DNA of 60,584 nt from Cyclobacteriaceae bacterium (GCA_027067135.1 JAMOMJ010000456.1:1-60584); one strand, 5' to 3'; positions 2,022 to 58,525 are shown, counted from the stretch's first letter. The notes: generated by a model from the sequence alone, not told the origin. Numbers and translations: made by a program.

Positions 2022-4166
2022 CTAATTACTTTTGGGTATCGCTTTTACAAGCAAATGGTTTTTAAAACTAATGTTGAGTTTTTCGTTGCCCTTGATGCTT
2101 CCCAATTCAACATTATGTTCATAGTCAATTATATCATACGCTTTATCTTCTAAGCCTCTAAACTCAATCTCCCCATTCCATTCGGTTGCGTAAAGTGCAT
2201 AATGCAGTATGCCGTCTTTAAGAATGGCGTGTGTTTCGGGAAAATCGTACCCAATGTCGTATAAGTTTAGGTACTCCCCTTTGCTAAGGGTATTTTCATT
2301 ATAGATTCGCAGCCATTTGGTAAATAGCTCTTTTCGTTCGGGCGATAGGTAGCCAGGATATTTTGCCCTTAAAAAATCAGCATTATCTTCCTTACGGCTT
2401 ACGAACATAGTTCCGGGTATTCCTCCAACACCTATCATTGACGGGAAATTTTCCGGGGAATATCGCCTCTCAATATGATCGCCATAAAATGCTGCGGACG
2501 ACCCCATTAATGCTTTTATGGTTTTCCCTCTATGCCTGATTTGCCAGGTAGTATTAAAATCTGACGATACGGGCTGATTATAATAAGGCATTTTGTAAAA
2601 AGAGGGAAACATGCCGCAAGGGCATACTTCCAGGATGGCATCCGGTTTAAGCTTCACGGTTTCTTCATATAAAATTTTATATAGTTCAGGAAGTGCCTCT
2701 ACGGATTCCTCGGGGTATTTATGCTGATGCTCTTTGGCGTAGCACTTACCTACTGAGTTGATTAGCTCCTGATCAACTTTAAAACCATCATAGCCCCACT
2801 CTCCTATAAATTTTTTAGCCATTTGCCTGTAATAATCCTGTACACCTTTTACTGCCGGACATAAAAACGGGGTGTATTGTTTGCCCATAAATTTATACCC
2901 TTCTGTTTTTCCTTCTTTATTTAATAATAACCACTCGGGGTGCTCAGCAGCCAGCTTTTCACCTGCTACATGGGTTGTAATCCAAATCTTTATTTTTAGC
3001 CCGTTATCGTGGAACCTCTTCACAAAGTTTTTCATTCCTTCGTCTCCTAAAGGGAAGGTGTCATCACGAGGGATATAGTCTCCATTATAATAAAACCAAC
3101 CGGCATCTACTGTGGCCACCTTAAACCCAAAATCCTTGATAACGGGTATTATTTCGAACATTTGTTCCTGCGTAAAATCAGGCCCAAACCCCCAACCACA
3201 CCAGACAGGTTCGTACACATCGGCAGGGGGCTTAGGCATTTCAAAACCATTTCGAGCCATTATTTTCGAATAGGTTCTGAGGCCATTATAAAAATCGCCA
3301 CCGTGTACTGCCATTACCACCGGTATGGTTTTATAGGTATCCTTAAACTCCATATTACCCCTATCGTATTGCATGCTGATTTCAAAAGTCTTGCGGTCAT
3401 TCACTTTGGCCGGTAGCGATATCAACGTAGGTTTATCTCTCAGGCTGCCAATTAAAAGACCCGACTCTTTATTCCACACATCAAGAACAGGCAAGCCTCC
3501 ACCCACCTCGCCCTTATCAAATTGAGCCCCCTGGTAATTTTCGAAAGAAAAATTTTTAGTTACAGGCAATATCCAATCCGGCCTTTCTTTGTAAGCTCCC
3601 CCCTGCAAAATCCAAAAATTATGTGATAGCTTAGTGCTATCTGTAAGGCTGGCATTTAGGGTAAAATGGTTATTAATTTCGCTGTTTATTATAAGACCGG
3701 CCGTTGAATTAGTATTGCGATAGGTTATATTGAGTATGATGGCTTCGGGAAAATCTTCGTATAAATCGAAATTCATTTGTTTTTCGATTTGTGAATTTAA
3801 CGACCCGTTTGCACTGGCAATTACAGTTAACCGTTTGCCTTTACCATAATTCGTATCAATATCAGCATATTTTATTTGGGTATTGTCAACAATAAATTGA
3901 TTTACTTTTTTCCCATTTACAATAATATAATGGGGTGTGTTCCCCGGTTGAATTATTGACAGTTCCCCCCTGGAGGTCTTTCTAAAAACATTTATTCTGG
4001 TTGCACTGTCAACTTCCAGTTTTATGTAATTATTTTTTAATACAATGGCTAAATCTGATGTTTTAGTATGTGTGCATGAAAAAAATAAGAGTATAGAAAA
4101 TGGCAAGCTTAATAACCATCGTACATACATATTTATTATTTTCATCAGTTTATAATTTATTTTCAA
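2022..4166 (-). CDS. Alpha-galactosidase-like glycoside hydrolase (clan GH-D, GH36/GH27-type TIM barrel), lipoprotein
   Basis: 714-aa ORF with an N-terminal signal and Cys (LLFFSCTH). VWCGWGFG...KVATVDAGWF and WGYDGFKVDQ resemble the melibiase-type barrel start and the KxD nucleophile region. The family call is from memory of motifs only. Confidence 0.5.
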   Translation of the reverse strand: MKINYKLMKIINMYVRWLLSLPFSILLFFSCTHTKTSDLAIVLKNNYIKLEVDSATRINVFRKTSRGELSIIQPGNTPHYIIVNGKKVNQFIVDNTQIKYADIDTNYGKGKRLTVIASANGSLNSQIEKQMNFDLYEDFPEAIILNITYRNTNSTAGLIINSEINNHFTLNASLTDSTKLSHNFWILQGGAYKERPDWILPVTKNFSFENYQGAQFDKGEVGGGLPVLDVWNKESGLLIGSLRDKPTLISLPAKVNDRKTFEISMQYDRGNMEFKDTYKTIPVVMAVHGGDFYNGLRTYSKIMARNGFEMPKPPADVYEPVWCGWGFGPDFTQEQMFEIIPVIKDFGFKVATVDAGWFYYNGDYIPRDDTFPLGDEGMKNFVKRFHDNGLKIKIWITTHVAGEKLAAEHPEWLLLNKEGKTEGYKFMGKQYTPFLCPAVKGVQDYYRQMAKKFIGEWGYDGFKVDQELINSVGKCYAKEHQHKYPEESVEALPELYKILYEETVKLKPDAILEVCPCGMFPSFYKMPYYNQPVSSDFNTTWQIRHRGKTIKALMGSSAAFYGDHIERRYSPENFPSMIGVGGIPGTMFVSRKEDNADFLRAKYPGYLSPERKELFTKWLRIYNENTLSKGEYLNLYDIGYDFPETHAILKDGILHYALYATEWNGEIEFRGLEDKAYDIIDYEHNVELGSIKGNEKLNISFKNHLLVKAIPKSN

Positions 4167-4256
4167 CGGTCAAATGAAGCTTTTGTACAGACAATCATTC
4201 TTTTGTGTGTAAATAATTTAGTATGCCGGTTTCATAACTTTAGATTTTGCAATAGC

Positions 4257-10307: not shown

Positions 10308-10691
10308 ATGAGTTATCAAAAATTCAGCATGACTTTAGGCTTCCTTATCTGGCTGGTGGCAACATTGCTCTTCAGGTTTTATGGAGCAGATTTCTTTTTA
10401 ACAGAGGATGCCATGGTGATGGGTACATTTTATTTTGGCATTATTCCTTTGTTATACTTATTAGTTAATTGGATGTTTAAAAAATACCGATTATCCAAAA
10501 CAGATAGAATACGGAGTGTAGTTTTAATGATACTTCCTGGGATGGCCTTAGACACCTTATGTATTAAATATTATTGGGTAGTATTTCCGGCTTTTTCGCA
10601 AGAAACAGCCGTAACATTAGGTTCCTGGGTAATTTGGGTTAATTTTATTATTTTAATAATTGGACTGCTTTCAAAAGAAAAAGGGGAATGA
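10308..10691 (+). CDS. Small 4-TM membrane protein (possibly DUF5367-type)
   Basis: 127 aa with four hydrophobic segments. Its last ~51 codons are duplicated as a fragment at 32613-32768. Confidence 0.6.
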   Translation: MSYQKFSMTLGFLIWLVATLLFRFYGADFFLTEDAMVMGTFYFGIIPLLYLLVNWMFKKYRLSKTDRIRSVVLMILPGMALDTLCIKYYWVVFPAFSQETAVTLGSWVIWVNFIILIIGLLSKEKGE

Positions 10692-10751
10692 CGGCAAACA
10701 ATTAGAGGCTAATGCCTTCTAAAACTTACACCTCCCTCAATATTTTAGCAG
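10536..10751. repeat. Left copy of a 216-bp direct repeat (pairs with 32613-32828)
   Basis: Hand alignment is gap-free with about 19 mismatches (~91% identity). It contains the 3' end of gene 10308-10691, a spacer and an antisense copy of the last 8 codons plus stop of galT (10726-10751). Confidence 0.85.
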
Positions 10752-19800: not shown

Positions 19801-19923
19801 TGTGGTGCCGTCTTCCGAATCTGATACTGTGCCAGAAATGGTTGTACCTTGTCCATACGTCTGAGAAAAACTGCCAATAAGCAAACATGCGATGGAAATA
19901 CACTGTAAAATTTTAGATTTCAT
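16831..19923 (-). CDS. SusC/RagA family TonB-dependent outer membrane transporter
   Basis: 1030 aa. It has a carboxypeptidase-regulatory-like N-domain (ISGTVSDSEDGTTLPGVTIQIKGT), a plug region (IIVTGYGVQKK...LKDAASAAIYGSRANNGVVLITTKKG) and a C-terminal aromatic residue (LGLQVTF). Confidence 0.92.
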   Translation of the reverse strand: MKSKILQCISIACLLIGSFSQTYGQGTTISGTVSDSEDGTTLPGVTIQIKGTQNGTVTDMDGAYTLSNVSSSDVLIFSYVGYKAIEILVGSQTSINVSMEADVEILDEIIVTGYGVQKKADVTGAVASVKPEDLIRIPTPGVTQAMQGLAAGVNVTQTTGAPGAGVAVRIRGVGSINSGNAPLYIVDGVPTENAMNYLSTADIESISVLKDAASAAIYGSRANNGVVLITTKKGSRSGGTQITFNSSVGIQQVGRLTPMTNKDEYIEVYNEAADYDNVGVPLALQRNKITEAMADTLPDISHLDEIFRKAILQNYYLGVSGGNEKTNYSISGSYFGQEGIIIGSDYQRLTGKVSVSTQAKEWFNIGVNLNVAQSTTNIIGSSGDGFGGNGGSVIRYAFFRSPAIPIYDKNGEFVDLPNNPEFFGDGYSPVGLANNTYNVNKDVQILGDINAKIDFAKNLSFSTKFGIDNNNYKRRRFNKTWGTNDRINNPNSLSVYNGSNFNWSWTNLINFDYEFGSHTISSIIGAEAIAVNSESTVTTERDFADQNLNLINLGNGQGIISTSEAIWEYRLLSYFARVNYDFKGKYLLTGIIRRDGSTRFVEENRWGTFSSVSLGWRIDKEAFLANSNMIDQLKLRIGYGANGNQAIDNFAYLEKINPGFEYPLGDIAQGGYTTTALGNADIKWETSTQLDIGADISIYSGKLIVALDYYRKVTRDQLMINTNPSSAGYATPSWVNDGKVLNTGIEFELEHNGQISDNLNYSISANVATIKNEVLELDGVYQNARIDNGVWATRTVQGQPIGSFYLYEMEGIFQNSTDIITHAIQGSSSQIQPGDIKYKDQNGDGIIDANDRTFVGKSIPDMILGANLGINYKNFDFTVFVQGAYGQQIYYQVATDIEGFYRPFNLTKRYYDERWTGEGSSNTQPRPSWKAKPNNTKPSTRFLEDGSYTRLKTLQIGYQLPKNLLDRLFLQKCRVYFLANNLFTLTKYPGLDPEMTTSDNSTAEGDKAAGIEWGTYPTAVSFNLGLQVTF

Positions 19924-19968
19924 CTGTTTATAATTTATTATTATCGGGCATATTTCTAACTAATACTT

Positions 19969-24081: not shown

Positions 24082-24147
24082 TAAGGTGCAATTTGGCTTT
24101 GTGTTTTATTAGCTCAATAGTAAACATCCAAAGTTTTTGTGTAAATC

Positions 24148-24232
24148 AAGTGCTCTATAGTACCAAATTGGTTACTAATATAACTATGGTAATAAGGTGT
24201 ACACATTGGTACTATTGGTATCAATGTGTGTT
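24148..24232. repeat. Copy A of ~85-bp direct repeat, upstream of the GH130 operon
   Basis: Aligns with 24825-24909 at roughly 88% identity. It contains GTACCAA/TTGGTAC-type motifs (GTACCAAATTGGTTAC, CATTGGTACTATTGGTATC). Confidence 0.75.
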
Positions 24233-24698: not shown

Positions 24699-24824
24699 CT
24701 GTCACGCAAAAATTTACAAAACCTGCTCAAAACACAGATTCTCCCCAACCTGCCCTAAAATTGGAGCCAAGAAAAGCCTTTTACGTAAAATCGCTTAAAC
24801 TACTCTTGTAATATCCAAAACTTG

Positions 24825-24909
24825 CCTGCTATTTAAGTACTCTATAGTACCAAATGTGTTGCCAATACAGCTATGGTAATAAGGTGTACACATTGGCACT
24901 ATTGGTATC
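24825..24909. repeat. Copy B of ~85-bp direct repeat, upstream of the DHp-only gene
   Basis: See 24148-24232. It has the same orientation and sits 677 bp away. Confidence 0.75.
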
Positions 24910-31224: not shown

Positions 31225-31236
31225 TGTTGTAGCCAG

Positions 31237-32055
31237 TTATTTTTTATCAATCGTTCTTCTTGCTCTATTAATTATTTTTGCAGTTTCTTTAGTCGGTGAT
31301 TCTTTCTGCCATTTTTCGCATAATTCAATCACAAAATTTGGCTTAGATTTACTTGCATCGTTTAACCAATTTCCAACACTGTCTTGAACATACTTTGATT
31401 CATCAGAATTCAAATTTTCCAAAATAGGTAATGCAATTTCAGGGTTTTCTTTTAGCCGTTCAATATGTTTACACCAAACACCTCTTGGTCTTGTAGATTC
31501 AGTTGTAAATCGTCTTATGTTTTCATTTTCGTTTTTTGTCCAATCACTTAAAATTTCGATAGATTTTTCTAAATTTCCATCAATTTCAGGTCGTAAAGCC
31601 ATCCACACAACTTCTCGCACTCCAAAATGATTGTCGGCAATAAGTTTTTCAGATTGATTTAGTTTTTCGGTTATGTTTAAATTCTCATTTAAAGACTTAA
31701 GATATGGTGCGAAACAACGAATAGAGTCGGACAAGTGAGAGCTCAATTTGTCAAAGATTGAGTTAAACACTTTGTTATCAGAATATAGTTCATAAAGTAT
31801 TGAGCCTACTAACTTGATTGTGTTCATCGTAGAAGGCTTTTTTTGAGCTTTTACTTTTTCGGAAATTAACTTTGTATTCTCTTCTGAAATTCCAATTTCT
31901 CCAAAGTTTGTTTCGATGAGCTTTAAGTGGTCAATCGCTAACCATTCCGTTAAATTTACCGTTTCGATTTTTCCTACATTCAGCAATTCCAAGACCTCTT
32001 TCGGAATGTCTTGGGCTTTTCTTGCTCCTTTTCGGTCAGTGATTTCTTTTTTCAT
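31237..32055 (-). CDS. DNA alkylation repair protein (AlkD-like HEAT-repeat family)
   Basis: 272 aa and helical-repeat rich. Motifs FGVREVVWMALRP, IRRFTTESTRPRG and YVQDSVGNWLNDASK resemble the 'DNA alkylation repair enzyme' family. Confidence 0.6.
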   Translation of the reverse strand: MKKEITDRKGARKAQDIPKEVLELLNVGKIETVNLTEWLAIDHLKLIETNFGEIGISEENTKLISEKVKAQKKPSTMNTIKLVGSILYELYSDNKVFNSIFDKLSSHLSDSIRCFAPYLKSLNENLNITEKLNQSEKLIADNHFGVREVVWMALRPEIDGNLEKSIEILSDWTKNENENIRRFTTESTRPRGVWCKHIERLKENPEIALPILENLNSDESKYVQDSVGNWLNDASKSKPNFVIELCEKWQKESPTKETAKIINRARRTIDKK

Positions 32056-32144
32056 TTAGGTGCTCTTTAATATTGACTAACGTCAAATTTTGTTTCTGAT
32101 TTTCAGCATGCTACGGATTCTCCTTTTAACACTCATATTTGCTC

Positions 32145-32400
32145 TTTTCATTGCTTTGACATTAGCTATTGAAATCAATTTGAAAAGGAAGAAATTGATG
32201 CCTTTTCCTATCAATTTCTGTTCCCCAAAAATCTCCCCAATAGTTGCTATCGCTCTACAATAAACTTCGGTAGAGAACTTAAAAGTACAAAATAACCCAC
32301 GGAGGCAAACTTTTTGATTTGCTAGCCGCGCAGCAGACATGGCAAATCAGAATAACACTTAGTCTGGCCGGAAAGGCACGGAAAATTAAAAATTTGACGG
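32145..32400. ncRNA. Candidate structured RNA / structured repeat, copy 1 (paired with 53124-53386)
   Basis: A ~256-nt segment collinear with 53124-53386. It has conserved blocks plus stems that differ by compensatory changes (details in findings). The overlapping track ORF is read in a different frame from its counterpart in copy 2. Strand undetermined. Confidence 0.5.
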
Positions 32401-32612
32401 GGCTAGCTATAAGAAATAAACTTAGTATTTAACCACTGAAACCCTATTGAGCACAGAATGTTAGCAGTATTTATGATAGTCTGAAACTTAAAGGAATAAT
32501 ATATGCAAAAGCCGAAGAATATTACAACTCTCCAGTTTTTGCTTTATTCTGAGTTTTTCAGCAGACCTTAAATAGTTTTTACATTAAACTCTCAGTAGTT
32601 ATATAGCATTAA

Positions 32613-32768
32613 CCCGGAATGGCCTTAGACACCTTATGTATTAAATATTATTGGGTAGTGTTTCCAGCTTTTTCGCAAGAAACAGCCGTAACATTAGGCT
32701 CTTGGGTAATTGGGAGCAATTTTATAGTTTTAATAATCGGACTGCTTTTAAAAGAAAAGTGGGAATAA
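32613..32768 (+). pseudogene. 5'-truncated fragment of the small membrane-protein gene (copy of 10536-10691)
   Basis: Reads PGMALDTLCIKYYWVVFPAFSQETAVTLGSWVIGSNFIVLIIGLLLKEKWE*. The homologous sequence in the intact gene is ...WVIWVNFIILIIGLLSKEKGE*. No start codon or N-terminal two thirds is present. Confidence 0.8.
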
Positions 32769-32828
32769 CGGCAAATAATTAGAGGTTAATGCCTTCTAAA
32801 ACTTACACCTCCCTCAATATTTTAGCAG
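32613..32828. repeat. Right copy of the 216-bp direct repeat (pairs with 10536-10751)
   Basis: See 10536-10751. It contains the genuine 3' end of galT. Confidence 0.85.
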
Positions 32829-36884: not shown

Positions 36885-37044
36885 TCTAAAAAATTAAGGT
36901 TTTTATTAATACCAAACCCAAGGGATAAACCCCTATTGGGATGGCGATAAAATTTATATTATTGCTTGAAACCCGGGCTCGAACTCAGGTTAAAAATTCG
37001 ATCAGCAGGTACTCAATCCGTAAACACCTTCTTCATTTTATTTA

Positions 37045-37214
37045 ATAGGGTTACCCATTTAAGTTGCAAATATATATATAAACCAGTCATCCTGAATTTA
37101 TTTCAGGATCTGGGCAAATGATGTCTTTAGATCCTGAAATAAATTCAGGATAACCATATATTTGATGTTATTCTGATACAGCAACTTCTCTGCGCTTTAA
37201 ATGGGTAACCCTAT
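37045..37214. repeat. Nested palindromic miniature element, family B, copy 1
   Basis: Outer inverted repeat ATAGGGTTACCCATTTAA / TTAAATGGGTAACCCTAT and inner inverted repeat GTCATCCTGAATTTATTTCAGGATC / GATCCTGAAATAAATTCAGGATAAC. It is ~85% identical (my estimate) to the reverse complement of 45992-46174. Confidence 0.75.
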
Positions 37215-38656
37215 TATTTAATTTTAACTATCCTCATTATATTTTCTGTGCAAGATACAATCAAACGGCCTGCATTGCCTAATGCTTCACTTAAATCCAT
37301 AGGTTTGTTTACAATAGAAAAAACAGAACTAACACCAAGTGTATAAATTTCTTCCATCTCATCTTCAACTTTTCCTGCAATGGCTATTACCGGCACCTGG
37401 TTTTTTTTAGCTATACCTGCAACTCCCATTACTACTTTGCCATAAAGCGTTTGAGTATCAATTTTTCCTTCTCCTGTAATTACCAAATCAGCCTGCTGAA
37501 TATGCTTTTCTAACTGCAATAAGTTAATAATAAGGTCAATCCCTCGCATTAGTTTTGCATTAAAAAAAGCTGCCATTGCCGCTCCCATGCCACCTGCTGC
37601 CCCTGCTCCGGCTATGGCATTAACCTCAACCCCAACATCTGATTGTATAATTAAAGTATAATGCAACAGGCTTTTGTCCAGTTGCTTTAATTCTTTGGAA
37701 TTCCCTCCTTTTTGGCCACCAAAAACAAGAGAAGCTCCATTGATACCTGTTAATGGATTGGACACATCACAAGCTGCAATAATTTCGCACTTGGCCAGCC
37801 TGTGGTCTAACTCCGAAAAATCGATTCGATGGAGTTGGTTCAATGCGCCTCCGGCACCTGTAATTAAAATAATTACTCCTGCTTCTTTTAACGCATTCGT
37901 TACCCAGCCTAATCGACTCTTGATGGTTATTCCCTTATCAACTAACTGCATGGCAAACAGTATTCCTATAAACAAGGCTACCAAAGGGTTGCCAAAAAAA
38001 GAGCAGGCTTTATACAATAGACCCTGCCCAAATGGGAATGAAGGATAATCCGCAACAGACCTAAGTGCTATGAGTAATATAGGGATTAGAATAGGAAAAA
38101 AAACAGCTAACATTCCTTTTTTGCTTTCAACAATTGCATCACTCTTTTTGCTTTCAACTTCTTTTATTTCCAGTTTGCTTCCTGAAATTTTAGCCCAGAG
38201 GTAGCCTGCAAAAGCGGTGGGTATGGCCAGTGCTATGCCCATAAGAATAACCAAACCAAGGTCGGCCTTTAATGCGGCAGCGGCTGCCAGTGGCTCCGGT
38301 GTGGGTGGTATAAAAACATGCGAAACATATAAGCCTGTAGAAAGAGCCACTGCAAAAACAACAATGGAAATACCCGTTTTTTTGCTTAATGCCTTATTTA
38401 ACGAGGCAAGAATAATAAATGCAGAGTCGCAAAAAACCGGAATAGAAACCAAAAGACCCGTTAAGTTCATTGCCAATGGCGATTTCTTTTCTCCTATGAG
38501 CCTTAACAGGTAGTTTGCTATAGCGGCTGTTCCTCCTGATTTTTCGAGAAAAGCACCAATAATGGAACCAAATGCTATAATAATACCAATATTTGAAAGT
38601 GTTTTGCCAAAACCTTCGTTTATTTTAGCAATTATGGTACTACCATCCAGGCCCAT
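37214..38656 (-). pseudogene. In-frame fusion remnant: 5'-truncated GntP-family permease (aa 1-~262) joined to the C-terminal ~215 aa of glycerate kinase
   Basis: The N-terminal part (GFGKTLSNIGIIIAFGSIIGAFLEKSGG ... GVIILITGAGGAL) is GntP-like. From about nt 37870 downward it switches to glycerate-kinase-like sequence (LDHRLAKCEIIAACDVSNPLTGINGASLVFGGQKGG ... ADLVITGEGKIDTQTLYGKV). The frame stays open upstream of the ATG to a TGA at 38753-38755 and encodes the rest of a first TM helix, with no start codon there. Confidence 0.6.
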
Positions 38657-42771: not shown

Positions 42772-42839
42772 AAAAATGGAACCTCTTCCAATCTGTCGGG
42801 TGAGGCTCTATGTGACCGTTGAAAATAAATTATAAGCAC

Positions 42840-45176
42840 ATGAAAAATAAAAAGGAAATATGGTTTGCAAACATTGCCAGCCATATTATTAATAACAGGT
42901 GGAAGTACCTGCTTTTGACCATAGCCATCATAATTGTTTCGGCAGTGGGTTTGCCCAGGATACAATTAGACAGCTCCCTTGAAAATTGGTTTACCAAAGA
43001 TTCGAAGCAGCTTTTTAACAGCAAGCAGTTTGAACAAAATTTTGGAAATACCGATGTGGTGGGCATTCATTTGCAAGCCGATGATGTTTTAGCGGCCAAA
43101 AATTTATACATGCTTCGAAAATTAACCACAGAGCTTGAAGAAAAGGTATCGCATGTTGACAGGGTGCAATCTATTATTAACCTGGAATACACCTATGCCC
43201 GGGATAGTGAAATTATTACCGAGCCATTGCTTGCCGATAATCCTACTGAAGAAGACATTGGTCTTACAAGGCAAAGGGTTTTGGCGAAACCTTATTTGAA
43301 AAACAATTTTGTTTCAGACGACTTTACTGAAACCTGGGTGATTATTGAACTATTGCCATATACCAAAAATGCAGATAGTAACACAAAACTAACCCCGGAA
43401 TATACTGTTGGTAAAGAAATTCTGGATGTTTTAAACCAGAGTAAATACAAAGCATACAATTTGCGACCTGTGGGGGCACCTTTATACAATTATGAAGAGC
43501 TTGTTTTTACCAATGCCGAATCGGGCAAACTAATAATTTTAACATTAATGGTTCTTATCATTTTTTTAGCACTGTTTTATCGCTCGCTAAAGAAAGTTGT
43601 TATTCCAATGCTAACAACGGTTGTTTCTATTTTTATGGTTTTCGGTACTATGGGCTATTTGGGCATAAAAATAAATGCCATACTTTTTGCTGTTCCCATC
43701 ATTTTTTCTTTGTCCGTTTCACTAGGGTTTTCAATACACCTGATAAACTATTATCAACTGGCATTATCAAAAAGAGATAGTGTTAAAGATGCTTTAATCG
43801 AAGCTGTGGGGCAGTGGGGCTGGCCTACAAGTTTTGCGGTATTAACAACCGGTGCCGCCTTATTGTCGTTTTTATCCATTGGTTTAATTCCGTTAAACTG
43901 GCTGGGGCTAACCTCAGCAAGTTTAATTCTGGTAGTATTGATAAACATATTTGTGCTGACCATTATATTGTTAAGTTTTGATAAAAAAGCGAAAAAGAAG
44001 ATAGAAACTAATAGGGTTGGGCTCTTCGATAAAATAGTAAAGTCTGTTTCGCAGTTGCTCATTAATCACCAGAAAAAAGTTGCTGTAACTTTTGCTATGC
44101 TGGCGGTTATTATAGCAGTCGGGTTATCCAATTTTGAAGTGAATTTTGATACCGAACATTCCTACGGAAATAAGGTAAGCTATATTAACCGAATGACCGA
44201 GGTGGCATCAACAAAAATCGGAACATTTGATTCTTACAACGTTACCATAAGATTTCCTGAAAAAGATGCTATAAAAAAGATAGATGTTTTGAAAAAATTT
44301 GAAGAGTTTCAAAATGAAGTAATGAAACTAAAACTGACAAAAAAGACAAGTTCTATTTTAACGATCTTAAAAGATATGAATAAGCTGATGAACGGTGATA
44401 ATCCCAATGCTTATCAGCTTCCGCAGAACAGCAAACAGGTAGCTCAATTGCTTATGCTTTATGAGATGTCGGGTGGTTCGAAACTTTCTGATTGGACAAA
44501 TCCGGATTTTAATATTTTAAGGCTTCGAATCGGGTTAAAAACAATGGACTCAAAAGAATCCATTGCAGAAACAAAATTTTTACGAAAATTATCAGCACAG
44601 CTTTTTCCTGATGCCAAAATTAATGTTACGGGTTCCTTGCCAAGTTTGGCAGAGGTAAACCATTTAATTGCCGTAGGGCAAATCAAATCGCTTATCATTG
44701 CTTTGTTAGTGATAAGCATAATGATGATGTTGGCATTTGGCAGCATTAGGCTAGGTTTAATTGGGCTAATACCCAATATTTTCCCACTTATAATTGTGGG
44801 TGGCACAATGGGTTTTTTCGATATCCCGATAGATTTTTTAACGGTAACCGTGGCACCAATGATACTTGGAATTGCCGTTGATGATACCATTCATTTTTTT
44901 AACCATGTAAAGCAGCATTACAAAAAAAGTGCTAATTATAAAATAGCGGTAACCGAAGCCATAAAAACGCTTGGGAAAGCCATCATTACCACCTCGGTGG
45001 TCATAGCATTGGCGTTTAGTGTTTATTTAATTTCGTCTTTTAATATTATGCGCAATTTAGGCCTGTTGGTGGTGATTGGCATATTATCTGCACTTTTTGC
45101 AGATTTACTCCTTTCGCCTTTGCTTATTATTTTAACAAAACCATTTGGCGATAAAGGCAATAACAACAAAAGTTGA
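42840..45176 (+). CDS. MMPL/RND-superfamily transporter (HpnN-like lipid exporter type)
   Basis: ~778 aa from the ATG at 42840 (the track ORF starts at TTG 42819). It has two blocks of ~6 TM helices separated by large soluble loops. The GIAVDDTIHFFNH motif is typical of RND/MMPL TM4-type regions. Confidence 0.8.
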   Translation: MKNKKEIWFANIASHIINNRWKYLLLTIAIIIVSAVGLPRIQLDSSLENWFTKDSKQLFNSKQFEQNFGNTDVVGIHLQADDVLAAKNLYMLRKLTTELEEKVSHVDRVQSIINLEYTYARDSEIITEPLLADNPTEEDIGLTRQRVLAKPYLKNNFVSDDFTETWVIIELLPYTKNADSNTKLTPEYTVGKEILDVLNQSKYKAYNLRPVGAPLYNYEELVFTNAESGKLIILTLMVLIIFLALFYRSLKKVVIPMLTTVVSIFMVFGTMGYLGIKINAILFAVPIIFSLSVSLGFSIHLINYYQLALSKRDSVKDALIEAVGQWGWPTSFAVLTTGAALLSFLSIGLIPLNWLGLTSASLILVVLINIFVLTIILLSFDKKAKKKIETNRVGLFDKIVKSVSQLLINHQKKVAVTFAMLAVIIAVGLSNFEVNFDTEHSYGNKVSYINRMTEVASTKIGTFDSYNVTIRFPEKDAIKKIDVLKKFEEFQNEVMKLKLTKKTSSILTILKDMNKLMNGDNPNAYQLPQNSKQVAQLLMLYEMSGGSKLSDWTNPDFNILRLRIGLKTMDSKESIAETKFLRKLSAQLFPDAKINVTGSLPSLAEVNHLIAVGQIKSLIIALLVISIMMMLAFGSIRLGLIGLIPNIFPLIIVGGTMGFFDIPIDFLTVTVAPMILGIAVDDTIHFFNHVKQHYKKSANYKIAVTEAIKTLGKAIITTSVVIALAFSVYLISSFNIMRNLGLLVVIGILSALFADLLLSPLLIILTKPFGDKGNNNKS

Positions 45177-45784: not shown

Positions 45785-45991
45785 AATACCAACAAATACC
45801 ATTGTATGGTAAATAAAGTGCTTGGTATTAGTAATAAATTTTTGATAGCTGGAATAATTTTTTTCCACTGCTTTCAATACATAAAAAAAGGTTTGCAAGT
45901 AGTTAATATTTTCACTTGTTTAACTTTGTTTTGGCAAAACAGCGAACAATTCGTACGACCTTGGCCTAAAAGGATCGTTTATAAAAATTGA

Positions 45992-46174
45992 ATAGAGTTA
46001 TCCGTTTAAAGCGCATGGAAATTGCTGTATTAGAATAGCATCAAATACATGGTCATCCTGTCTCGATATTTATCATCGGGATCAGTGTCTGGACAAATGG
46101 TTATCTTTAGATTCTGAAATAAATTCAGGATGACTGGTTTATTGATATTTTTGGGACTTAAACGGGTAACCCTA
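45992..46174. repeat. Nested palindromic miniature element, family B, copy 2 (inverted relative to copy 1)
   Basis: Outer inverted repeat ATAGAGTTATCCGTTTAA / TTAAACGGGTAACCCTA and an inner ...TCTGAAATAAATTCAGGATGAC arm. It is collinear with the reverse complement of 37045-37214. Confidence 0.75.
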
Positions 46175-49474: not shown

Positions 49475-50701
49475 ATGCAAAACAACTCATTCAAAAAAAA
49501 GAGAAATAAACCTACTTCAAATGGTAGTAAACCATCAAGTGGTTCTCGAACTAAAAAACGACCTCAAAGGCAAAGTCGTGGGCAGAAAAAGTCAAATTTA
49601 AATCCTGCTTTATTAGTTAAAAAAGCAACACCGTTTGCTGTAAAAAACTATGAGTCAGAAAGGCGAATTGAGGATTTACCTATTAGCCCTAATTTAAAGG
49701 AATGCCTTATTAGTAAAGGATTTAGAAAGCCCACTGAAATACAGGATCGAACCCTAGAAGCCTTACTAGAAAAACGTGACCTACTTGGAATAGCACAAAC
49801 AGGTACGGGTAAAACAGGAGCCTTTTTAGTACCTATCATTGAGCAATTACTTGAGTATAAGCAAAAGAACTTTGCCTTGGTTATGGTACCCACTCGCGAA
49901 TTGGCCACTCAGGTAGAAGAAGAGTTTCAAAGCATGGCCAAAGGGTTAGGGATTTATAGTGCTTGTTTTATAGGTGGAACCAACATTAACAAAGATATCA
50001 ACTCGCTTAAGAGGGCTAAGCACGTAATTATTGGTACACCTGGTAGGTTACTGGATTTGCACAATCGTAAGTCTCTCAATTTCGGTAATTTTAACACCTT
50101 AGTGCTTGATGAATTTGACCGTATGCTGGATATGGGTTTTGTGCACGATGTTAAGAGGATAATTGGAAGTATGCATAAGCGAAAGCACACGCTTTTATTT
50201 TCAGCTACGCTAGACAAAACGCAAGAAGAACTAATTATTGGTATTCTGCATAACCCTATTACTGTAAAAGTAAGTACAGGCGATACCACTGGAGACCATA
50301 TCGATCAAGACATTATTCGACTTAAACAAGGTGAGGATAAATTTAAGGTACTTCAAGAGATGTTATCAGATGGCGATTTTAATAAAGTTCTTCTCTTTGA
50401 AGAAACCAAACATAAAGCCAATCGCCTTTGCGGGAAGTTAAATAAAGTGGGCATCAGTGCTGACCAAATTCATGGCAACAAAAGCCAAAATGCGAGGCAA
50501 CGAGCTTTAAACTCGTTTAAGCAAGGAAAGATACGAGTATTGGTTGCCACTGATGTAGCTGCAAGAGGTATTGATGTATCGGATGTTACTCATGTAATTA
50601 ACTACCAAGTACCTATGACATTTGATAGTTATATTCACCGAATTGGGCGAACAGGTAGAGCAGGAAAAACCGGGAAGGCTTTTACGTTTGTAGAAGCTTA
50701 G
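49475..50701 (+). CDS. DEAD-box ATP-dependent RNA helicase with basic N-terminal extension; motif II is DEFD
   Basis: Helicase motifs are Q motif FRKPTEIQ, motif I AQTGTGKT, motif II VLDEFD, motif III SAT and motif VI HRIGRTGRAG. The first ~45 aa are K/R/S-rich. Confidence 0.85.
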   Translation: MQNNSFKKKRNKPTSNGSKPSSGSRTKKRPQRQSRGQKKSNLNPALLVKKATPFAVKNYESERRIEDLPISPNLKECLISKGFRKPTEIQDRTLEALLEKRDLLGIAQTGTGKTGAFLVPIIEQLLEYKQKNFALVMVPTRELATQVEEEFQSMAKGLGIYSACFIGGTNINKDINSLKRAKHVIIGTPGRLLDLHNRKSLNFGNFNTLVLDEFDRMLDMGFVHDVKRIIGSMHKRKHTLLFSATLDKTQEELIIGILHNPITVKVSTGDTTGDHIDQDIIRLKQGEDKFKVLQEMLSDGDFNKVLLFEETKHKANRLCGKLNKVGISADQIHGNKSQNARQRALNSFKQGKIRVLVATDVAARGIDVSDVTHVINYQVPMTFDSYIHRIGRTGRAGKTGKAFTFVEA

Positions 50702-50708
50702 TAAAAAG

Positions 50709-50860
50709 GCAACTATTTAGGTTTCAAATCAATGGTATCTCCAAAATTAACCGCAAAGGACGCAATGTGCTCGCTAAGAACGCTAAGAAAAGCATCGCAA
50801 ACTTTGCGTAAACCTTAGCGAGCCTTGCGGTAAAGGGGTTAAATATACCTGAATAGTTAC
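50709..50860. mobile_element. MITE-like element, family A, copy 2 (8-bp target-site duplication)
   Basis: Terminal inverted repeats are GCAACTATTTAGGT (50709-50722) and ACCTGAATAGTTAC (50847-50860). It is flanked by GTAAAAAG at 50701-50708 and 50861-50868. The interior is itself palindromic (ACCGCAAAGG...CTCGCTAAG / CTTAGCGAGCCTTGCGGT). It sits directly after the helicase stop codon. Confidence 0.7.
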
Positions 50861-50985
50861 GTAAAAAGTAACCTCTCGCAGATACCACAGATTATTTGTT
50901 TTTAAATGGAGTAATCTCTCGCAGATGCCACAGATTTACGCAGAAAAATACAAATTATCTGTGGAAAACAATAGCACCAAAAAAA

Positions 50986-51648
50986 TCACCAATCAATTTC
51001 AGGTAACCCTTTTTGAGATAAATAAGTATTGCACTTGCTAAAATGCTTATTTCCAAAAAAACCTCTATGCGCAGCAAATGGTGATGGATGCGCTGACTCT
51101 AACACCAAATGTTTTGTTCGGTCGATAATAGCGCCTTTCTTCTGCGCATAAGCTCCCCACAACAAAAACACCAATTGTTCTTTTTGCTCATTAAGTGATT
51201 TTATAACTGCATCTGTAAATTCTTCCCACCCTTTATTTTGGTGAGATCCCGGAGTGGAAGCTCGAACGCTTAAGGTTGCATTAAGCATTAATACTCCCTG
51301 ACCAGCCCACCTTTCTAAATTACCAGATTCTGGTATTGGCTTACCTAAATCGGTGGCTATTTCCTTAAAAATATTTTGGAGTGAAGGAGGCTTTCGCACT
51401 CCATCTGCAACCGAAAAGCATAACCCATTGGCTTGCCCGATACCGTGATAAGGGTCTTGCCCAATAATTACCACTTTGGCATCGTTAAACGAGCAATGAT
51501 CAAAAGCACTAAAAATCTGCTTCCCCGGTGGAAATATTTTATATGTTGAATATTCTGATTTTATAAATTGAACTAAGTTTATAAAATAGTCTTTATCAAA
51601 CTCGTTGCTCAACTGTTCTTTCCACGATTCTTCAAGTTTTATATCCAT
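50986..51648 (-). CDS. ung: Uracil-DNA glycosylase
   Basis: 220 aa with the family-1 UDG motifs VVIIGQDPYHG and HPSPF. Confidence 0.92.
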   Translation of the reverse strand: MDIKLEESWKEQLSNEFDKDYFINLVQFIKSEYSTYKIFPPGKQIFSAFDHCSFNDAKVVIIGQDPYHGIGQANGLCFSVADGVRKPPSLQNIFKEIATDLGKPIPESGNLERWAGQGVLMLNATLSVRASTPGSHQNKGWEEFTDAVIKSLNEQKEQLVFLLWGAYAQKKGAIIDRTKHLVLESAHPSPFAAHRGFFGNKHFSKCNTYLSQKGLPEIDW

Positions 51649-51728
51649 TAGTAATTAAACATCTCTATTAAATAATCGTTTAATATTACAAATTATCAAA
51701 TTAAAAATCTAATCGTTAACTTTGAAAA

Positions 51729-52115
51729 ATGGTAACTGAAGTAACAAATGGTGTTAAGGTAACTGTTGAGGTAGAATATCAACCACAATATTCGAATCCG
51801 AGCCAGCACCATTATGTGTTTACCTACCAAGTTACTATAGAAAATAACAGCTCTAAAACACTGCAATTAGTTCGTAGAAAATGGCTTATTAACGATGCTG
51901 CTTTCCCCATTAGAACAGTTGAAGGCGAAGGTGTTGTTGGCCGGCAACCTATTTTAGAACCTGGGCAAAAGCATCAGTATATATCGGGTTGTAATTTAAG
52001 ATCGGGCATTGGAAAAATGCATGGCAGCTACAAAATGGAACAATTAATGGATGGTCAGGTAATAACCGTTCATATTCCTGAGTTTAAAATGATTGTTCCA
52101 TTTAAGCTTAATTAA
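51729..52115 (+). CDS. apaG: ApaG (DUF525) protein
   Basis: 128 aa. The YVFTYQVTIENNS...LVRRKWLINDA...VEGEGVVGRQPILEPG pattern is typical of ApaG. Confidence 0.85.
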   Translation: MVTEVTNGVKVTVEVEYQPQYSNPSQHHYVFTYQVTIENNSSKTLQLVRRKWLINDAAFPIRTVEGEGVVGRQPILEPGQKHQYISGCNLRSGIGKMHGSYKMEQLMDGQVITVHIPEFKMIVPFKLN

Positions 52116-52895
52116 TTGAATCATCAGATTATTTCTTATGTAAACCATTGGCTAAACGAGGTAAATTCACATTCGCTTCAAGCACCATTTATTTACAATC
52201 TTTATACGAAATTTATCCAAAAGGATTTTAATAAGAGTCATTTTGAATCTATTGAAAAAACAAGAGTTAAGCTTCTGAACGAAGATTTTTCTGTGAAAAC
52301 AGTTAATTATGGAGCCACCTCCATTGTACACGCTAATTTACAACAAACAAGGGTTAGCACCATCACAAAAAAAGGATTAAGCTCTGCTAAAGTCAGTAGG
52401 CTTTTAGCTCGATTAATAGAATTTAATGGAGCCAAAAATATAATAGAACTAGGCACTTCGTTTGGTTTAAACACAATGTATTTGGCGCATAAAAAAGACA
52501 CTAGTGTAATTACATTTGAAGGATCAGAAGATATAGCTAACGTAGCATTGACCAATTTTGAGCATCATCAAAAAAGTAACATTGAGCTTATTTTAGGTAA
52601 TATTGATAAGACTTTGCCAGAGTTTTTAAATGCTAGAATACGCATTGATTTCGCCTACATTGATGCCAACCACAGGTATAAACCGACCATCAGATATTTT
52701 GAATCCATTATAAAGCGAATGCACAAAGATTCAATTCTTGTACTAGATGATATTTACTGGTCGAAAGAAATGACCCAAGCATGGAATGAAATTAAGGCTC
52801 ATCCTGAAGTAACTCACTCCATCGATTTGTTTTCGGTGGGTATTGTATTTTTTCAGCCCGACTTGGTGAAGACAAATTATAGGTTAATGTTTTAA
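52116..52895 (+). CDS. Class I SAM-dependent (O-)methyltransferase
   Basis: 259 aa with a TTG start abutting the apaG stop. SAM motif I is IIELGTSFGLNTMY, and DFAYIDANH is typical of the O-methyltransferase family 3 fold. Confidence 0.7.
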   Translation: MNHQIISYVNHWLNEVNSHSLQAPFIYNLYTKFIQKDFNKSHFESIEKTRVKLLNEDFSVKTVNYGATSIVHANLQQTRVSTITKKGLSSAKVSRLLARLIEFNGAKNIIELGTSFGLNTMYLAHKKDTSVITFEGSEDIANVALTNFEHHQKSNIELILGNIDKTLPEFLNARIRIDFAYIDANHRYKPTIRYFESIIKRMHKDSILVLDDIYWSKEMTQAWNEIKAHPEVTHSIDLFSVGIVFFQPDLVKTNYRLMF

Positions 52896-52951
52896 AAACT
52901 AATTGCTTACATCCAAGTAAAAAACCTTTCTCCCACAGATTTTCGCAAGCC

Positions 52952-53117
52952 CTAGTGTTAAGTCAAGTGTAGTGTGTCGTATAAGTTGTCGACATTTTTG
53001 GGCTAGACAATGCAAAAAATATACCCATAGCCGTAGCTACGGAAATATTTTTTAAAGAAGTATAGGGCAAAAATGTCAAAGCTTGGTTCGGCTAAAGTAT
53101 GCTTGACTTGACACTAG
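52952..53117. repeat. 166-bp imperfect long palindrome
   Basis: The termini are CTAGTGTTAAGTCAAG / CTTGACTTGACACTAG. Internal complementary blocks are GACATTTTTG / CAAAAATGTC and AAAAAATAT / ATATTTTTT, and the centre is CCGTAGCTACGG (~53036). Confidence 0.65.
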
Positions 53118-53123
53118 TTACTA

Positions 53124-53386
53124 TTTTCATTGCTTTGATTTAGCCATTGAAATCAATTTGGAAAGGAAGAAATTGATACCTTTCTCCATCAATTTCTGTC
53201 CCCAAATCTCCCCCAATGAGACCTAACTCCCTACAATTAAACTTCAGTAGGGAGTTTAATTGTACAAAATTTTGATAACCCACGGAGGCATTTTTTTTGA
53301 TTTGTCGTGCCTGCGGCCAGGCTAGCAAATCACAGTAACACGTAGTCCCGCTTGCCTTGGGCACGGCAAATTAAAAAGTTTGACGG
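53124..53386. ncRNA. Candidate structured RNA / structured repeat, copy 2 (paired with 32145-32400)
   Basis: See 32145-32400 and findings. Strand undetermined. Confidence 0.5.
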
Positions 53387-53415
53387 AATTAAACTACAAT
53401 AGGAGAATTAAGTGT

Positions 53416-53451
53416 TTAACCCGAAAAATTTACATGAATTTTTCGGGTTAA
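53416..53451. other. Perfect 15-bp stem hairpin (TTAACCCGAAAAATT-tacatg-AATTTTTCGGGTTAA)
   Basis: Read directly from the sequence. It lies 30 nt beyond copy 2 of the structured repeat and 155 nt upstream of fahA. Confidence 0.6.
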
Positions 53452-53606
53452 TTGCGAAAAACATGAATGCTGAAGATGTTTTCACCGTCCAATTACGCTT
53501 TGCAAGTTAGCCGCCAAAAAAATTGCATAATGCAAGTAAATTGTCATTGTCATGACGTAAATTGTATGTTTCTTTTTATACCCTCAAATAATCAACAATT
53601 AAAAAA

Positions 53607-58453: not shown

Positions 58454-58525
58454 TAGTCCGTAGGGGAATCGAACCCCTGTTGCTGAGATGAAAACCCAGT
58501 GTCCTAACCCCTAGACGAACGGACC
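58454..58525 (-). tRNA. tRNA-Glu (anticodon UUC)
   Basis: The reverse complement is GGTCCGTTCGTCTAGGGGTTAGGACACTGGGTTTTCATCTCAGCAACAGGGGTTCGATTCCCCTACGGACTA. It folds as a cloverleaf with acceptor GGTCCGT/ACGGACT, anticodon stem CTGGG/CTCAG, loop TT-TTC-AT and T-arm GGGGTTCGATTCCCC. It closely resembles bacterial tRNA-Glu. CCA is not encoded. Confidence 0.9.

Follow-up and report, generated by a model that had tools for sequence, protein, structure and literature searches.

The window analysed here, a 60.6-kb stretch of DNA from a Cyclobacteriaceae bacterium, carries traits of a Bacteroidota chromosome, among them a hybrid two-component regulator (Reg_prop/Y_Y_Y/AraC) and galK-galT. The nearest named relatives of its fumarylacetoacetase come from Cyclobacteriaceae (76%) and Fulvivirga (~70%). 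A non-coding repeat is present twice: copy 1 adjoins an AlkD-like gene, and copy 2 lies upstream of the fumarylacetoacetase gene (Table 1). When 32100-32450 was aligned with 53080-53440, the copies proved collinear at ~84% column identity, as an earlier sequence-only reading of this DNA had proposed. The 29-nt and 16-nt conserved blocks have 2 occurrences each in the window, against a chance expectation of 0-0.34 from shuffles. The element had been described as ~260 nt long; the duplication is real, but the true unit is longer (32145-32466 and 53118-53421), with homology ending on the right at ~32466 in copy 1 and ~53421 in copy 2.

Table 1. Positions in the window of the features discussed, with their proposed identities
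Feature	Position	Strand	Basis or remark
AlkD-like cassette	31226-32081	-	Same cassette flanked by attCs in L028 and L029
Possible small attC remnant closing the ext mini-cassette	32078-32166	-	Predicted stem, z only -0.67
ext (left third) of copy 1	32162-32250	-	Helices i and iv; starts at the preceding attC crossover
Copy 1, putative decayed long attC-type site	32245-32466	-	Alignment to 9 intact members, broken arm pairs
Truncated duplicate of the DUF5367 3' end	32613-32828	+	Copy of 10536-10751
166-nt MITE, TIR CTAGTGTYAAGTCAAG	52952-53117		Abuts the end of ext in copy 2
ext (left third) of copy 2	53140-53226	-	Conserved to ~53118, where the MITE abuts
Copy 2, putative attC remnant	53221-53421	-	Alignment; family homology starts only at GGTTAAACACT
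12-bp palindrome AACCCGAAAAAT...ATTTTTCGGGTT	53418-53449		In place of the missing 5' arm of copy 2

The sequence-only reading had interpreted the repeat as a structured non-coding RNA on the strength of local helices that change in both arms. Helix i, the basal stem of helix iii, the alternative pairings of the loop of helix i (helix iv) and the conserved AACCCACGGAGGCA block all lie exactly where it placed them. Helix ii is also real and covaries in the wider family described below, although its arms in copy 2 had been placed one base too high and run from 53227 to 53234 (CTCCCTAC) and from 53247 to 53254 (GTAGGGAG). The difference in helix i, described as a concerted loss of one A and one T, is in fact a substitution pair, A-T to G-C (32183/32206 in copy 1, 53161/53184 in copy 2), plus one G.T pair. 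In helix iii, the ~20 apical nucleotides had been called unrelated between copies, but they are mutual reverse complements: 32315-32355 and 53292-53332 form an inverted pair spanning the apex with 80% complementarity. The apex is a single GC-rich insert that sits in opposite orientation in the two copies and is also found in a metagenome relative, L006. Short GC-rich inserts of this kind (CGTGCC...GCAGGC type) are found in either orientation in hairpin loops of the AT-rich repeat, at 32323-32341, 32356-32380, 53305-53325 and 53340-53362 in the window and at ~1700-1725 of L006 and ~400-450 of L007 among the relatives; they look like a tiny mobile or hairpin-templated motif. Coding of a protein by the element was rejected because the overlapping ORFs read homologous bases in different frames, an argument already made in the sequence-only reading.

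The window holds several further repeats and gene features. A second MITE-like family is present at ~37043-37215 and ~45991-46174 (TIR ATAGGGTTACCC[A/G]TTTAA); its copies are internally palindromic and intergenic, and one lies just upstream of a GNAT gene. Downstream of the UDG-family gene, the minus strand of 50760-50960 contains the tandem motif AATCTGTGG[C/T]ATCTGCGAGAG[A/G]TTAC at intervals of ~50 nt, together with palindromes of the CGCAAAG/CTTTGCG type; similar GC-rich palindromes lie upstream of the FAA hydrolase gene of L025. A conserved stretch of ~45 nt marks the 5' ends of three large genes (4132-4180, 19911-19953 and 42805-42853), two on the minus strand and one on the plus strand, and may be a shared promoter, leader or signal-peptide region. 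A 100-nt direct repeat (24123-24222 and 24810-24909, 82%) flanks a short ORF with only a HisKA fragment. Finally, a 480-aa ORF at 37214-38656 joins a GntP permease family region (residues 1-275) to a glycerate kinase region (residues 240-477), as either a fusion or a frameshift artefact.

Anatomy of the repeat family

Scanning metagenomes with the pattern GTACAAA-N(0-12)-AACCCACGGAGGCA identified 8 contigs with 11 relatives of ~190 nt each, several of the contigs carrying two or three copies. BLAST showed that the relatives share only the right two-thirds of the window unit (~32248-32466); the left third, here called ext, is absent from the metagenome family. All relatives lie in the orientation of the window's minus strand, which is the gene strand, and in L010 and L011 they occupy the gaps between small same-strand genes. 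The cargo beside them includes a GNAT acetyltransferase, a CHASE2 protein, esterases, DUF proteins, a PycTM effector with a nucleotide cyclase (a Pycsar pair), a SIR2-like protein and AbiEi/AbiEii, a range of genes usual for integron cassettes. The Pycsar pair lies between two repeats of L011 (1866-3148), AbiEi/AbiEii follow the single repeat of L008 (1425-3036), and the SIR2-like protein follows the repeat of L004 (736-1797). The MITE that abuts copy 2 has a 93% identical copy near an attC in L009 (1715-1882), so the organisms behind the metagenome arrays are probably closely related to the one from which the window comes. No match to the element was found by blastn in plasmid and phage collections, by three pattern scans of viral contigs, by a conserved-block pattern scan of species-representative genomes, or in a protein database queried with a six-frame chimera for copies caught in spurious ORFs. 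The loci of L025-L027 (78-84% aa identity) that are syntenic with the window, and other AlkD contexts (L022-L024), are likewise free of family copies.

In gene orientation, the family unit measures ~193 nt, with similarity switching on at ...AAC and off at CGTT.... Intact members, for example L011 1654-1846, begin with RYYYAAC-ATT-CTGTAAACT-CAA-TAAGG and end with CCTTA-CTGT-AGTTTACAG-TAAGC-GTTRRRY, and the AAC and GTT at the two ends are invariant in 9 of 9 intact copies. With ATT (5') and TAAGC (3') as spacers between the R and L boxes, the layout is, judged from sequence, that of an integron attC, in which R''/L'' boxes are followed by L'/R' boxes with unpaired spacers. The AAGCGTT and AACATTC near the ends resemble classical attCs.

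Of all the family's helices, the long-range terminal arms have the strongest support. Pair counts on the alignment give 97% pairing for these arms compared with 26-47% in slid controls, and three arm pairs show double compensatory changes (UA7/AU2, GC7/AU2 and AU6/GC3). The arms had escaped the sequence-only reading, which reported no terminal inverted repeats: this holds for the window copies, but intact members have imperfect inverted arms of ~25 nt, unnoticed because that reading stopped at 32400 and the window copies have decayed. Between the arms lies a branched, conserved middle with the hairpins GTCAAAT../..ATTTGAC and TGATTTG/CAAATCA, the central one of which, GTCAAAT[T/C]...[A/G]ATTTGAC, covaries (UA4/CG5). 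The local helix ii loses a pair exactly in those copies where the long-range arms are rescued; since helix ii covaries too, structure other than the attC arms may matter.

In the centroid fold of the bottom strand, the terminal arms are paired with each other, and folding with DNA parameters makes the bottom strand the more stable of the two at 17 of 17 sites, comprising 10 family copies and 7 attCs of other families. The latter come from the Bacteroidota MAG contig L021 (JBCCLN01), from L028 (assembly GCA_900163505.1) and from L029, in all of which the bottom-strand folds present an R box, a spacer bulge, a long L stem and a branched top. The A/G differences in L021 and L028 amount to G.T pairs in the bottom strand, where the top strand has A.C. 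Asymmetric internal loops of 3 vs 5 nt and 3 vs 4 nt are present and are at most candidate counterparts of the canonical extrahelical T and G of the L box, the bases that set strand choice. Sites of the window family are 193-196 nt long (222-226 nt with inserts), longer than the ~57-141 nt usual for attCs; those of the other families measure 233 nt in L021, 134 and 195 nt in L029 and 132-133 nt in L028.

Both window copies depart from this anatomy, and neither retains the pairing of the terminal arms. Copy 1 has an R'' box, TGCTAAC (32466-32460), and reads GATAGCA at the R' position (32251-32245), with GAT for GTT. It also has a 2-nt deletion in L'', two GC-rich inserts, a 6-nt deletion inside the most conserved block and a 3' arm belonging to the other sub-variant, which leaves its two arms unmatched. 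In copy 2, the 3' arm and the R' box GTTAGGT (53227-53221) survive, and the 5' arm (R''/L'') is gone. These defects make both copies look like relics; as read from their sequences, they would no longer be able to fold as recombination substrates and are presumably functional dead ends. Their shared derived inserts and shared ext point to descent from one ancestral unit of attC plus ext.

Cassette junctions and the AlkD-like gene

The boundaries of the family behave as recombination junctions. The attCs L010c and L011a differ throughout, with 89% identity over an alignment that includes an identical tail of 118 nt, and this tail, 100% identical in both, is the DNA that follows CGTT|ACAA. Identity beginning at that point indicates that the same cassette stands behind two attC variants, with the switch at the R' box. 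In 8 cassettes, the flanking 7-10-mers are complementary: GTTACAA/TTGTAAC in L011, GTTGGGC/GCCCAAC in L010, GTTATGG/CCATAAC in L021, GTTGTAGCC/GGCTACAAC around the AlkD cassettes of L028 and L029, and three further cassettes of L028 that follow the same rule. Reverse-complementary flanking heptamers are expected if a cassette circularises through G|TT. A G|TT crossover and cassette bounds of the form TTRRRY/RYYYAA were found in the arrays examined.

The AlkD-like gene next to copy 1 is, from these junctions, itself a cassette. In both L028 and L029 it reads CCG|TTGTAGCC...ATG...TAACTGGCTACAAC-attC...CG|TTG, with 9 of 9 flanking positions complementary. In L028 it belongs to a five-gene same-strand array with repeats in the gaps (four measured), and in L029 it likewise lies in an attC array. 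The window cassette begins at the boundary G|TTAGTC (32081-32075), with GTTAGTC 20 nt before the ATG, continues through the ORF (32055-31237), retains TAACTGGCTACAAC after the stop codon and ends in the R'' box GGCTACAAC (31234-31226). The DNA after the window's AlkD gene forms only a weak palindrome as a candidate attC, no better than shuffles. Homologs with 75-89% aa identity are spread across several Bacteroidota families (Flagellimonas, Hyunsoonleella, Crocinitomix, Polaribacter and Reichenbachiella, among others), and nucleotide homology between the window and Flagellimonas is confined to the ORF plus 16 nt. Two further loci, L030 and L031, examined for an array or an integrase, show single-gene contexts with neither. 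The same R'' box, GGCTACAAC, is kept in the window (31226-31234), L028 (2046-2056) and L029 (2011-2021) with three unrelated attC bodies, which suggests attC replacement or host-specific homogenisation.

Just upstream of copy 1, in array orientation, lies the DUF5367 duplicate. The last ~155 nt of the DUF5367 gene (10308-10691) and the 60 nt downstream of it have been duplicated there at 91% identity, and the result is a truncated pseudogene, the end of which runs over the stop codon of galT (32803). Upstream of the fumarylacetoacetase gene, the window has a UDG-family gene (-), apaG, an O-methyltransferase gene, the 166-nt MITE, ext and the attC remnant. The relatives L025-L027 (78-84% identity) have hgmA-hppD directly upstream of the same gene, and when 50701-53606 was compared with them, hgmA and hppD stood between the Glu/Leu/Phe/Val dehydrogenase and fumarylacetoacetase genes only in the relatives. 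This difference places copy 2 at a rearrangement junction, and the presence of the UDG, apaG and O-methyltransferase genes in place of hgmA-hppD suggests that part of a tyrosine-degradation operon has been replaced.

The left third of the repeat

Conservation between the two window copies runs past ext of copy 1 to ~32145. Three 8-mers, AAATTGAT/ATCAATTT, alternate along ext at a spacing of 18 nt, an arrangement for which we know of no described counterpart. An A-B-A' pattern scan of the genome collection identified a third copy of ext in L021, and the nine other matches were rejected as chance matches in coding repeats. In L021, ext starts right after the GTT of an unrelated attC-like palindrome of 233 nt (z -4.5), which follows a YkuD-type gene. 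All three copies start at the crossover (GTT|AGGT, GTT|AGGC and GAT|AGCA) and end in RGCTAAY, which is complementary to the start at 4-5 of 7 positions. A coding role was discarded: the single frame that is open across all three copies lacks a start codon, its conserved residues coincide with inverted repeats, and the copies share no ORF with a start codon. A group II intron end, an IS1111-type end and an attI were also considered and set aside, since they seem to fit neither the sequence nor the position of ext.

The start of ext at a crossover and its recurrence behind an unrelated attC make it, as read from its three copies, the probable cargo of a gene-less mini-cassette. An attC of its own may survive in the 89-nt stretch at 32078-32166, which is bordered by 11-bp terminal inverted repeats (CTAATGTCAAA/TTTGACGTTAG) and closes with the GTTAGTC that bounds the AlkD cassette on its 5' side; the stretch folds no better than shuffles. 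As in known gene-less integron cassettes, ext is short and non-coding, starts exactly at the R' crossover and recurs behind unrelated attCs in different organisms; it differs from them in that its own attC is tentative and in being represented by three copies only. Helix i can be paired on the plus strand in all three copies (AU, GC and GU at one position, with three G.U cells), a pairing without statistical weight given that there are three sequences and that 326 of 500 shuffles do as well, and the B:A' helix of ext is invariant. In function, ext may be an RNA, a protein-binding site or a promoter.

Weighing the readings

We consider it likely that the two copies are decayed integron-type attCs, each with a gene-less cassette, and not an RNA gene. 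The element would be a composite of two pieces of mobile DNA on the minus strand, an attC of ~190-200 nt and the ~85-nt ext. In the single-stranded bottom strand, the ends would pair into R and L boxes around the conserved branched middle, and a tyrosine recombinase would, by analogy with integrons, cut between G and TT of the 3' box, so excising or inserting the adjoining gene cassette; by the same analogy, the enzyme would be an IntI-type recombinase. Lying directly after the crossover, ext would behave as a mini-cassette of its own. Copy 1 would thus stand in a small decayed cassette cluster formed by the DUF5367 fragment, the long attC, ext and the AlkD-like cassette, and copy 2 would be left at the rearrangement junction. 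Most of the compensatory changes would be the imprint of past selection on DNA hairpins, and the rest local palindromes. Counted against this reading are the site length, the rarity of integron reports from Bacteroidetes, the covariation of the local helix ii, the small number of ext copies with the poor fold of the proposed attC of ext, and the fact that two decayed copies 21 kb apart share attC and ext as one unit.

The recombinase itself was searched for in the window and at contig ends. A Pfam scan of 30 window ORFs gave no tyrosine recombinase, none of the arrays was linked to an integron integrase (IntI) or to an attI, and no integrase fragments were found at the ends of the array contigs, which are <=4.8 kb or end at a repeat. 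A survey of complete Bacteroidetes genomes with IntegronFinder 2.0 listed only In0 elements and one complete integron, in Salinibacter ruber (PMC9024848), and a review names Bacteroidota among the phyla with integrons.

Among known systems, the closest are the attCs of sedentary chromosomal integrons, such as the VCRs of Vibrio cholerae. Both have RYYYAAC/GTTRRRY ends, imperfect arms with an unpaired spacer, a sequence conserved at the species level with one copy after each same-strand cassette, a G|TT crossover, a better-folding bottom strand and small accessory or defence cargo. Unlike them, the sites studied here reach ~190-233 nt, their middle is highly conserved and branched, their host is a Cytophagales-like member of the Bacteroidota, a phylum with few reports of integrons, no integrase was seen, and the two window copies are solitary and decayed. 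The CALIN and SALIN classes of IntegronFinder are also comparable, being attC-type sites without a nearby integrase, here next to a cassette-like gene (AlkD-like), although the window sites are decayed and might not score with its covariance model. On this reading the element is of a known kind, an integron-type attC; what is unusual is the length of the site and its host.

A different emphasis, compatible with the attC explanation, would see in the conserved block a portable promoter or 5'-UTR module responsible for expression of the downstream cassette, with the recombination features secondary. The motif GTTTGCCT-CCGTGGGTTATCA-(T/A)AATTTTG can be read on the gene strand as a Bacteroidota-type promoter with -33 TTTG and -7 TAnnTTTG. 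The block is the most conserved part of 13 copies, with GTTTGCCT invariant and a perfect TAATTTTG in 3, and it is always oriented towards the next gene, which begins ~50-60 nt downstream. We nevertheless regard this as unlikely to be the main explanation: the 16-nt spacer between the motifs is shorter than the ~17-23 nt of Bacteroidetes promoters, copy 1 has a 6-nt deletion inside the block, and the block is missing from the other attC families (L021, L028 and L029). For gene-less cassettes in general, promoter activity is documented (PMC6557892; bioRxiv 10.1101/2023.11.21.568050).

Less probable still is a structured non-coding RNA, be it an sRNA gene or a 5' leader, that is made from one strand and has its helices kept for RNA function. 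The sequence-only reading was right that the structure is conserved and covaries and that no protein is encoded, but the evidence points to a single-stranded DNA recombination site with a gene-less cassette. Its suggestion that copy 1 would be the 5' leader of the AlkD-like gene if transcribed on the minus strand likewise gives way to an attC and an adjoining gene-less cassette. Speaking for an RNA, both strands of copy 2 give folds better than those of shuffles (z -4.7 and -3.7), G.U pairs on the plus strand preserve helix i of ext in its three copies, local hairpins covary across the family, and integron cassettes encoding sRNAs or promoters are known. Against this, the fold of copy 1 is unconvincing on the two strands (z -2.0 and +0.15), and the relation to a downstream gene is inconsistent, copy 2 facing the 3' end of a convergent gene. 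Simple scans found no promoter or terminator bounding the unit, the B:A' helix of ext never varies, and the right two-thirds are fully explained by attC anatomy and array context. Rfam agrees with the earlier statement that no RNA family could be recognised: at the gathering threshold, the sole match in the whole window was a tRNA (58454-58525), both copies gave only noise at a permissive E<=10, and nothing credible appeared among 8 related loci at E<=0.1. The Pedo-repair RNA motif, a Bacteroidetes motif found upstream of DNA-repair genes, is similar in that it, too, is non-coding and precedes genes of the DNA-repair type in Bacteroidota, but it differs in that neither copy matches any Rfam family even at E<=10 and no repair gene lies downstream of copy 2. 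An RNA role is possible for the ~85-nt ext part only.

The weakest alternative, and a very improbable one, is that the repeat was scattered in the genome by a transposase, as a MITE or as the conserved end of an IS element: the genome has at least two true MITE families, the repeat is short, multicopy and non-coding with inverted terminal arms in its intact members, and short-read contigs with the genes that flank it in the window are interrupted within the element, in the way assemblies usually are at repeats. But the family lacks target-site duplications (no direct repeats among the 4-mers on the two sides of 8 intact copies), the genes between copies are bordered by sequences that are mutual reverse complements, the copies keep one orientation relative to genes and fill the intergenic gaps of arrays, their boundaries behave like those of site-specific recombination, and there is no plasmid or phage match and no transposase nearby. 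The sequence-only reading had itself named the conserved end of a known IS or MITE as a finding that would count against an RNA, and an integron attC comes close to that.

For the window, the integron-type attC explanation is deflationary, since an apparently novel structured RNA is better explained as debris of cassette recombination. Cassette arrays are under-reported in Bacteroidota, yet clear ones are seen here, with attCs of ~190-233 nt. They offer leads in their anti-phage cassettes (Pycsar, AbiE and SIR2), in the shared alkylation-repair cassette and in the recurrent gene-less mini-cassette, and they could be used in tuning attC detectors and in finding the integrase in long-read assemblies. 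More speculatively, and with a small chance of being right, an uncultured Cytophagales-like lineage and other Bacteroidota may possess long-attC cassette systems with promoter-bearing middles, a travelling ext and swapped AlkD attCs. If so, a promoter in the attC middle would let each cassette bring expression to its downstream neighbour, and the ~85-nt ext, with a possible pseudoknot and G.U tolerance on the bottom strand of the array, would move from one array to another and serve as a regulatory RNA or as a module bound by protein. The AlkD-like cassette would, in turn, exchange its attC body from host to host but retain the R'' box.
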